Shown here in pieces: positions 3,979-4,799 of a stretch of 7,863 bases of DNA. The stretch spans positions 1 to 7,863 of the IMG/VR virus record IMGVR_UViG_2548876950_000005. One strand, 5' to 3'. The notes beneath the pieces are model-generated. The model ran no database searches. It saw only the letters and a program-made list of their open reading frames with translations, and had not been told where the DNA came from. The DNA comes from a virus (taxonomy: Duplodnaviria > Heunggongvirae > Uroviricota > Caudoviricetes). The translations under genes were made by a program, and so were the position numbers. Position 1 is the stretch's first letter; every line of letters starts with the position of its first letter.

Positions 3979-4431
3979 ATGGATTTAAGTAAATTAGAAA
4001 GCTCTTTAGAAGCATCAGTAAAAAAATTTATATCAGTAATTGATGAAAAAACTGAAGATATTAAGAAAGCAACTATTGCAGAACTTATTCAAACAAGAGC
4101 CAGTACATTTGATCATTTTCCTGATGATGTCCGGTCAGCGGCAATTCACGTATATGTAACGGCACTAAGCAATATTGAACCCCCAATTGATGAAGAATCA
4201 AGAGATATTCAGAGAAAACGACTTGAAATGTTAGCCAGCAACATTATCGCTGGTTTCACACGGCTCTTAGCAAAAAAGCCTGCCAGTGAAGCTATTCGCC
4301 AGCAGGCTCAGGTAATGATTAATCAGGCAGAAACTATTTCACGTGAGCGAAAAGCATTTGATAAATCGGTTTCTGAACTTCCAACACCTCAACCGCAGCC
4401 GCTGAACCTTCCTTCTCAACAAACTGAATAA
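3979..4431 (+). CDS. Hypothetical protein, 150 aa
   Basis: ATG 3979 (MDLSKLESS…) with GAGGT SD, 2 nt after the N-like stop. The track ORF 3898..4431 extends upstream only by overlapping the N-like ORF out of frame. Confidence 0.5.
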   Translation: MDLSKLESSLEASVKKFISVIDEKTEDIKKATIAELIQTRASTFDHFPDDVRSAAIHVYVTALSNIEPPIDEESRDIQRKRLEMLASNIIAGFTRLLAKKPASEAIRQQAQVMINQAETISRERKAFDKSVSELPTPQPQPLNLPSQQTE

Positions 4432-4588
4432 CTTCATCAAGATTCTTTTTTGCATTTGTTGATTGCTCAGGCGGCATAGCAGAAACAATCGAAATGATTG
4501 CTTGCTGGAGCGCGAGGTTTTCAGTGCTCAGTTTTGAAACTCTGTCGTTTAAATCCTCAATGATTTTAACAAGAGATACATCTGACAT
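4334..4588 (-). CDS. Hypothetical protein, 84 aa, counter-oriented within the pL operon
   Basis: Strong SD AAGGAG 6-7 nt upstream of ATG (4588). Helical-looking product. The 3' end overlaps the 3' end of orf150 convergently by 98 bp. Confidence 0.45.
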   Translation of the reverse strand: MSDVSLVKIIEDLNDRVSKLSTENLALQQAIISIVSAMPPEQSTNAKKNLDEVIQFVEKEGSAAAVEVLEVQKPIYQMLFAHVK

Positions 4589-4601
4589 GTGAACTCCTTA
4601 T

Positions 4602-4648
4602 TTTGACTGTGGAAACAACAGTCTACCCATTTCCTTTGACTGTGGAAA
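4602..4648. repeat. Two 14-bp direct repeats TTTGACTGTGGAAA (4602-4615, 4635-4648), 33 bp apart
   Basis: Read directly; located 14-60 bp upstream of the minus-strand orf84 start. Confidence 0.8.
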
Positions 4649-4708
4649 GTGAAGGAACCACCGAGCCTGATGTGGTTAAAAGACAGGCACACTAATAAAC
4701 ACTGCACT

Positions 4709-4736
4709 GTGTATTCATTCCAACGAGTGAATACAC
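4709..4736. repeat. Perfect 9-bp inverted repeat GTGTATTCA-N10-TGAATACAC
   Basis: Read directly; arms 4709-4717 and 4728-4736. Confidence 0.8.
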
Positions 4737-4799
4737 GTAGCAATGTCGCTCGTAACTAAACAGGAGCCGACTTGTTCTGATTATTGGAAATCTTCTTTT

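Follow-up and report, generated by a model that had tools for sequence, protein, structure and literature searches.

The window analyzed here (7,863 nucleotides, positions 1 to 7,863 of IMG/VR virus record IMGVR_UViG_2548876950_000005, one strand, 5′ to 3′) spans the immunity and early-left part of a lambdoid prophage, in which pL transcription runs on the plus strand. Between the N-type antiterminator gene and cIII it carries orf84, which is read from the minus strand, against pL, a placement also found in phages P22, lambda and HK620. An earlier note, made from the sequence without database searches, had drawn attention to orf84, its strong Shine-Dalgarno (SD) sequence AAGGAG, its 98-bp convergent overlap with orf150, and repeats and a palindrome upstream; the gene, the SD sequence and the overlap all lie where it placed them. 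Positions ~4272–4705 are likely to form a self-contained accessory cassette (a moron) that occupies the slot held by sieB in P22 and carries a promoter of the sieB/sas type together with an antisense RNA that would control orf84. The features of the cassette and of the gene that it overlaps are:

3979–4431, plus strand: orf150, the first gene past N
4334–4588, minus strand: orf84 coding sequence, 84 aa, predicted to be a three-helix, acidic protein without a membrane segment
~4584–4705, plus strand: predicted antisense RNA of the sas type, its ends set from homology to the 127-nt P22 sas; complementary to the orf84 AUG, the SD sequence and the whole leader
4602–4615: proximal repeat copy, sense TTTCCACAGTCAAA, at approximately the predicted transcription start, where the orf84 mRNA is predicted to begin; its plus strand is part of stem-loop 1 of the predicted antisense RNA
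4620–4625, minus strand: −10 element TAGACT, between the repeats
4635–4648: distal repeat copy, overlapping the −35 element on the minus strand and lying in the loop of stem-loop 2 (H3) on the plus strand
4643–4648, minus strand: −35 element TTTCCA, with a 17-nt spacer to the −10 element
4631–4657, plus strand: hairpin H3, TTCCTT (4631–4636) and AAGGAA (4652–4657) around the distal repeat
4656–4677, plus strand: helix H2, AACCAC (4656–4661) with GTGGTT (4672–4677)
4665–4688, plus strand: helix H1, GCCTG (4665–4669) with CAGGC (4684–4688)

orf84 is a real, conserved protein-coding gene. Its SD sequence (plus-strand CTCCTT, 4594–4599) lies 5 nt ahead of the ATG. Thirteen clusters of orf84 proteins, every one exactly 84 aa long, were recovered down to 69% identity in a search of 5.8 billion proteins; a profile search widened the family to 39 clusters of 80–94 aa, all unnamed, across the Enterobacterales (Escherichia, Hafnia, Kluyvera, Yersinia, Serratia and Enterobacter), and an exhaustive hidden Markov model search of 1.84 billion representatives gave 27 matches, the credible ones being stand-alone proteins of ~80–87 aa. 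Pairwise differences among seven distinct orf84 coding sequences of at least 70% identity fell at codon positions 1, 2 and 3 in the numbers 151, 30 and 359 outside the orf150 overlap (359 of 540 at third positions) and 62, 62 and 169 inside it (169 of 293). Because third positions of orf84 are second positions of orf150, the minus-strand frame is under selection within the overlap, and the codon comparison that the earlier note had proposed, with conservation of the plus-strand frame alone as the contrary outcome, favored the orf84 frame. The AlphaFold2 model of the protein (predicted local distance difference test score 89.8) has helices at residues 2–37, 40–60 and 63–81. Searches of PADLOC and NCBIfam gave no match, matches in Pfam and PHROGs were sub-threshold and only coiled-coil-like, no significant match was found in PDB or BFVD by sequence or by fold (Foldseek), and a search of genome contigs with the orf84 profile gave no match; as far as these searches reach, no homology between orf84 and a protein of known function could be detected.

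Transcripts of orf84 would end at an intrinsic terminator on the minus strand (4307–4272), consisting of a 13-bp stem (4307–4295 with 4290–4278) and UUUUUU (4277–4272). It begins 26 nt past the stop codon, inside orf150 codons ~98–110, and orf84 homologues with 83% and 74% identity retain a hairpin and T-run past their 3′ ends. The segment 3980–4595 did not occur among 50,697 phage records. Of 5426 finished E. coli genomes only 5 contained it whole, and in these orf84 is annotated by PGAP. Morons, in the concept of Juhala and Hendrix, are inserted genes with their own promoter and terminator and with expression from the prophage. orf84 appears to be one, as an accessory insert in the N-to-cIII interval with its own terminator and, by homology, its own promoter. 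It resembles other lambdoid morons in these elements and in its presence/absence polymorphism, here counter-oriented in an early operon, and differs from them in that its promoter and leader are not its own alone; they would form a chassis that is conserved and exchangeable and at the same time serves as a gene for an antisense RNA. A disrupted copy was seen in E. coli Z1323CEC0019 (NZ_CP148401; locus L002, 3658–4871), where IS1203 lies within the 5′ part of orf84 at about window position 4562; wherever compared, that prophage is 100% identical to the window.

The two direct repeats described in the earlier note are exact copies of TTTGACTGTGGAAA (4602–4615 and 4635–4648), with starts 33 nt apart; only 2 of 1000 dinucleotide-preserving shuffles of the window contained an exact 14-mer that recurs within 60 nt, which makes chance an unlikely source of the pair. 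The TTTCCA/TAGACT pair that it had offered as a possible promoter matches consensus at 8 of 12 positions, under the threshold of a generic promoter scan. The curated P22 record BK000583, in which a mapped sieB promoter and RNA start are annotated, shows a −35 region over repeat 1, a 17-nt spacer, TAAACT between the repeats and a start one base ahead of repeat 2. This layout is seen again in the window, and the 40 nt upstream are nearly identical. In P22, a two-base change in the corresponding −10 hexamer abolished expression. This homology to an experimentally mapped promoter makes TTTCCA/TAGACT the likely promoter of orf84, with a predicted transcription start at ~4613–4616, at the edge of the proximal repeat. 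sieB is among the genes expressed from the P22 prophage in the lysogen, which it does not kill (PMC10883804). A literature search with the repeat sequence returned only unrelated primers.

The likeness to the P22 sieB-esc locus extends to the slot (past the N homologue and facing pL), the H1/H2 sequences within the near-identical upstream 40 nt, and a region predicted to give an antisense RNA with three stem-loops. The two loci differ in the repeat, CCCCTACAG in P22 and TCCACAGTCAA in the window, and in the cargo, which is the 192-aa SieB in P22 and an unrelated 84-aa protein, predicted to be soluble and helical, in the window; orf84 showed no detectable similarity to SieB and fell apart from it in the clustering of cargo proteins. 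Lambda sieB and HK620 hkaP are likewise counter-oriented between N and ral/cIII, with a P22-type unit upstream that has two CCCCTACAG repeats 33–35 nt apart; the 40 nt ahead of these repeats are shared with the window. HK620 hkaP (164 aa) and the SieB-family cargo in the scan described below (162–198 aa) are larger than orf84.

The upstream region is not confined to orf84. The 229 bp directly upstream of its start codon recur in E. coli TL20 ahead of a different counter-oriented gene of 54 aa, and an exact-word scan of IMG/VR, seeded with the distal repeat, gave more than 119 contigs. All of them shared one layout, namely repeat 1, TTTCCA, a 17-nt spacer, TAnnnT, repeat 2, an AGGA-type SD sequence and an ATG at about +61; the −10 hexamer in these contigs was TAGACT, TATGTT, TAATTT or TACTCT, TATAAT also occurs among the cassettes, and the hexamer is always TAnnnT at the fixed position. 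The AGGA-type SD sequence stood at the same offset in 126 cassettes. In 126 instances, nearly all cases, the unit lies just past N or repressor-side genes and is convergent to those genes. The window-type unit precedes at least 14 unrelated clusters of small proteins (28–98 aa). The orf84 family is one of them, and others are CxxC zinc-ribbon proteins (NCBIfam ECs_2282) and a YmfI/GhoS-like family; one of the cargo families matches NCBIfam YmfI_phage, under that model's cut-off. The P22-type unit was found ahead of SieB (78 instances), the hkaP family (17) and others. A scan seeded with H1/H2 returned further repeat flavors (CCCCAACAAC, CCCCAATGCAA and CCCCCACAA), each with two matching copies 33–34 nt apart. 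Counting at least four flavors, the unit precedes SieB and at least 14 unrelated small-protein families in more than 250 viral contigs. Because identical repeats stand ahead of at least 14 unrelated cargo genes, they are not a private regulatory device of orf84. The autonomously regulated insert of the earlier note thus keeps its own promoter, its terminator and its place between N and cIII and loses its private repeats. The unit was unlabeled in every E. coli genome examined, no description of many cargoes and several flavors on one chassis was found in the literature searched, and literature searches on lambdoid defense hotspots and on ymfI returned nothing relevant.

Short forms of the unit, with one motif copy only, were found in the same scan. 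In these, a TATNNT hexamer right after H2 is a candidate −10 element and TTAACC within H1/H2 a candidate −35 element; the two-copy form looks like a ~33-bp tandem duplication that shifted the promoter downstream. An example, and a K-12 instance of the slot that orf84 occupies, is ymfI of prophage e14 in E. coli K-12 MG1655 (L251, 4420–4839), which like orf84 is a counter-oriented small gene beside repressor-side genes; it is preceded by an H1/H2 element and a single-copy short form, TGCTGG...TTCTCACACAG...CCAGCA, and differs from orf84 in having one motif copy rather than two and in belonging to a different protein family. Prophage e14 was set aside as a source of start-site data for the orf84 promoter, as only the degenerate single-copy form is present there. 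In short forms (IMG/VR loci L252–L317 and others) the 3′ arm of a hairpin around the single motif is the SD sequence (for example TTTTAAGGAT), and the 5′ arm, ATCCTTAAAA, overlaps the −10 element and discriminator. The SD sequence would be sequestered in transcripts that enter from upstream and free in those from the unit's own promoter, an arrangement that resembles the fold-back protection of IS10.

The plus strand of the unit most economically reads as encoding an RNA of the sas type at 4584–4705. P22 sas is an antisense RNA of 127 nt by RNA-seq, detected only in infected cells (PMC13397905, Table 2), and is the exact reverse complement of the whole P22 unit (start codon, SD sequence, repeat 2, −10 element, repeat 1, H2 and H1), ending two bases inside the sieB open reading frame (ORF) on one side and 17 nt past H1 on the other. 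As far as the work of Ranade and Poteete (1993) is summarized in PMC7067206 and PMC12197685, sas blocks translation of SieB and spares the internal product Esc. Window positions 4584–4712 on the plus strand align to P22 sas, with the last 50 nt almost identical, and both RNAs fold into three stem-loops. Rfam contains no family for sas, and the predicted antisense RNA matched no Rfam family.

Covariation supports the structured elements. H1 and H2 overlap and are mutually exclusive, and the sequence that contains them (4656–4688) is nearly identical in P22, lambda and HK620. Across 67 distinct sequences, 87.8% of H1/H2 cells were paired, compared with 28–46% when the partner was slid, and 49 cells had changed on both sides, compared with 18.6 in shuffles. 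Wobble pairs in H1/H2 were ambiguous as to strand (~9 versus 15). For H3, which was found by a custom stem search, pairing was kept by 50 distinct arm pairs, and internal non-Watson-Crick pairs fitted a G-U on the pL strand in 22 cases and on the other strand in 6. RNAalifold applied to a MAFFT alignment of mixed flavors recovered only H1, with H3 out of register. An H-type pseudoknot combining H1 and H2 was considered and dropped, as the connecting loop would be only 1–2 nt.

These data bear on the possibility that the repeats are operators, bound at −35 and +1 by a DNA-binding regulator that could be orf84, another phage protein or a host protein and that would repress or activate the orf84 promoter. 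Direct repeats over a −35 element and a start site are the classic operator layout, the copies are identical within a cassette and differ between flavors, the 33–34 nt spacing is about three helical turns, and by inspection the repeat core xTTTCCACA matches a relaxed DnaA box at 8 of 9 positions. However, autoregulation by the cargo is excluded by the identical repeats ahead of 14 unrelated proteins, and when all ORFs of 247 loci were clustered and tested against repeat flavor, no gene within ~7 kb was tightly associated with it (the best, 39 of 124 versus 0 of 123, reflects lineage structure). The P22/lambda flavor CCCCTACAG is unlike a DnaA box, RNA spanning the repeats has been sequenced in P22, and the position of the distal repeat in a hairpin loop with covarying arms and a one-strand wobble bias points to RNA rather than to a protein operator. 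Operators are thus an unlikely explanation. A linked cognate regulator was rejected, since the signals among the 247 loci were only lineage-level, and a DnaA box, which the repeat core and the H1 loop resemble (TTATCCACA), was dropped because the P22/lambda flavor is unlike it and conservation extends beyond the box.

Under the sieB/sas-type reading, the minus strand would be transcribed from the sieB-type promoter shared with P22 and lambda to give an orf84 mRNA with a short leader, ended at its own terminator, and by homology with P22 this promoter would be active in the lysogen. Upon derepression of pL, transcripts in the pL direction would yield the structured RNA from ~4584–4705, which, being fully complementary to the orf84 leader, SD sequence and AUG, would shut off orf84 translation. 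One repeat copy would serve as the cis complement of the mRNA 5′ end, and the other, displayed in the H3 loop, may nucleate (kissing) pairing with that 5′ end; such a role would force both copies to change together. Met38 of orf84 does not vary among close relatives but is replaced by Leu in distant ones. The family has no conserved internal start of the Esc type, so that the effect of the antisense RNA would be to turn orf84 off, and not to move translation from SieB to Esc as in P22. The locus keeps the two-strand chassis of the known sieB/sas arrangement; new here are a different repeat flavor and a cargo without an Esc-type internal product.

A small protein gene with a cis-encoded, structured antisense RNA over its SD sequence and AUG is also what is seen in systems of the hok/sok type. 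orf84 could on this ground be a toxic protein checked by the antisense RNA, the whole forming an addiction unit like a type I toxin–antitoxin system. orf84 is acidic and soluble, without a hydrophobic segment, by its sequence and AlphaFold2 model, and to our knowledge type I toxins are unlike this. Moreover, P22 sas was detected only in infected cells and not in uninfected ones, the opposite of a constantly made antitoxin, and the homologue of the promoter in P22 is that of sieB, which is expressed in the lysogen without killing it (PMC10883804). An addiction unit is accordingly very improbable.

The earlier note had also proposed that pL read-through interferes with orf84 in antisense at the convergent overlap. 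Antisense interference is likely, having a published mechanism at the homologous P22 sieB; most probably it acts through a sas-type RNA on the 5′ end of orf84 (leader, SD sequence and AUG) and not on the 3′ overlap (4334–4431). In other prophages, N is followed by a protein of 97 aa that is similar to residues 1–97 of orf150 and ends at that point; the orf150 homologue of TL20 likewise stops at residue 97. Residues ~98–150 of orf150 are the antisense of the orf84 terminator and 3′ end. The end of the orf150 tail varies by strain (138 or 150 aa), and a stretch like it is found with orf84 even where, in a Rac-like prophage, the N-terminal part is missing. This would be expected if the tail were simply the other strand of the cassette. 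The overlap looks like a by-product.

It could be argued that the convergent overlap is itself the control site, through polymerase collision or an orf150/orf84 3′ duplex, with the orf150 tail as a co-evolving partner domain. Convergent overlaps do recur, over 62–98 bp with orf150 homologues and, in prophage e14 of E. coli K-12, over 63 bp where ymfI meets ymfJ, and a stretch like orf150 residues 92–150 occurs with orf84 in loci where the N-terminal part is missing (L007, L008, L039 and L111). Yet the substitutions within the overlap fall mostly at orf84 third positions, with only 62 at third positions of orf150; the tail has two alternative ends and is absent from one homologue, which ends at residue 97; the terminator hairpin of orf84 accounts for the conserved DNA downstream of it; and many cassettes have no such overlap. 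The 98-bp overlap is probably not a control site, and the version of events in which it governs orf84 seems less probable still than operators. Transcriptional interference from pL is possible as an additional layer of control.

Several points weigh against the sieB/sas-type reading or limit it. Promoter activity and production of the antisense RNA in this prophage are argued from homology to P22, and no convincing plus-strand promoter was seen upstream of 4584 on inspection by eye only. H1 and H2 cannot form together and are alternative helices. The set in which the repeat copies were compared had been pre-selected at ≥10/12 identity, so the copy-match statistic is partly circular, while the flavors themselves were read directly. 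The N frame of this element is short, and N-dependent read-through may be impaired. As for orf84, the IS1203 insertion in one strain means that it is dispensable for the host and decaying there, and the protein lacks an informative match in Pfam, PHROGs, NCBIfam, PADLOC, PDB and BFVD, so that a role in defense would be deduced from its position.

orf84 may be a lysogen-expressed effector, most likely of the superinfection-exclusion or abortive-infection kind, because it occupies the SieB slot and its wiring would silence it when the leftward operon fires; this is a possibility that we hold tentatively. In the lytic cycle of its own phage, such an effector would do harm or be of no use. Somewhat more speculative is the view that the psieB/sas unit is a portable two-strand chassis, which would express an interchangeable small effector in the lysogen from one strand and the RNA that silences it from the other, with the repeats as the specificity determinant. 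If so, the repeat flavors, of which there are at least four, would define cross-silencing groups, a superinfecting or induced phage would disarm only resident effectors of its own flavor, and the resulting arms race would drive both the concerted change of the two copies and the turnover of cargo (at least 14 families for the window flavor alone). For 30 years the sieB/sas switch has been a paradigm based on one cargo gene; the distribution of the unit suggests that lambdoid prophages of enterobacteria use it generally, as a modular means of control that serves many uncharacterized small proteins. If the cargo consists of lysogen-expressed exclusion or defense effectors, the slot would be a compact hotspot for new ones, and the conserved leader would offer a handle for cataloguing cargo and for testing antisense silencing in trans.

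The perfect 9-bp inverted repeat that the earlier note had assigned to the upstream region of orf84 is present (4709–4717 and 4728–4736), a few bases past the predicted 3′ end of the antisense RNA. Perfect 9-bp inverted repeats with a loop of 3–12 nt occurred in 28% of shuffles and are not significant alone; the palindrome extends to an imperfect 22-bp hairpin (4699–4746) with a folding z-score of about −5.2 on either strand and is conserved in thousands of prophages. It lies in a segment (4655–4830) found at 96–99% identity in lambda, in HK620 and in P22-like phages, as well as in over 2000 E. coli genomes. In lambda the palindrome (L004, 1891–1918) is downstream of ral, which stands between it and the sieB promoter, and thus between it and the unit; HK620 and the window both lack ral, so that in each the palindrome and the tL2A/tL2B zone come right after the unit. 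Because it belongs to a separate segment shared with lambda, the palindrome is not part of the orf84 unit. No feature is annotated at the palindrome in the lambda and HK620 records examined; it could be a processing or stabilizing hairpin of pL transcripts.

The other genes and signals around the cassette are:

510–809, minus strand: CII-like gene
907–1152, minus strand: Cro-like gene
1213–1950, plus strand: LexA/CI-type repressor gene
1988–2329 and 2481–3002, plus strand: two accessory genes
ending at 3976, plus strand: N-type antiterminator frame (Pfam N_peptide)
4501–4524, plus strand: weak terminator-like site in the orf84 antisense, a candidate tL1 equivalent by consensus match only
4800–4822, plus strand: pL-strand intrinsic terminator, CCCTC...GAGGG followed by a T-run, the equivalent of HK620 tL2A
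4837–4856: counterpart of HK620 tL2B
4872–4930: Lambda_thermo (cIII thermoregulator), intact (Rfam, 88.5 bits, E = 4e-21)
from near 4886, downstream of orf84: cIII, followed by kil and recombination genes

In the HK620 record, tL1 is annotated within the antisense of hkaP. The two accessory genes lie directly past the repressor, in the position of lambda rexAB. The product of 1988–2329 is a DUF3024 protein that matches the PADLOC candidate defense model PDC-S43 (E = 2e-41) and phrog_3467, and that of 2481–3002 is a 173-aa protein of phrog_2602, without known function. The N-type frame, within 3003–3976, is 68 aa long with a GTG start, and ~770 bp without a convincing gene separate it from orf173; its counterpart in CP148401 is marked by PGAP as partial, with the N-terminus missing. 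This prophage may thus have a truncated N antiterminator, or one of an unusual kind. At the other end of the window, positions 1–63 hold a perfect 21-bp tandem repeat, GCTCCTGCCCCACCCCGGGCA, in 2.7 copies plus one degenerate copy, beyond cII, where related prophages place the replication protein gene; these repeats may be origin iterons. Some relatives carry extra pL-strand genes between the orf84 unit and cIII (L003, E. coli 09-00049, 2769–3218; L009, 2816–3858), among them those for a 149-aa hypothetical protein, an Nmad5-family protein and a 322-aa protein, so that the interval downstream of the orf84 unit is a second variable spot.

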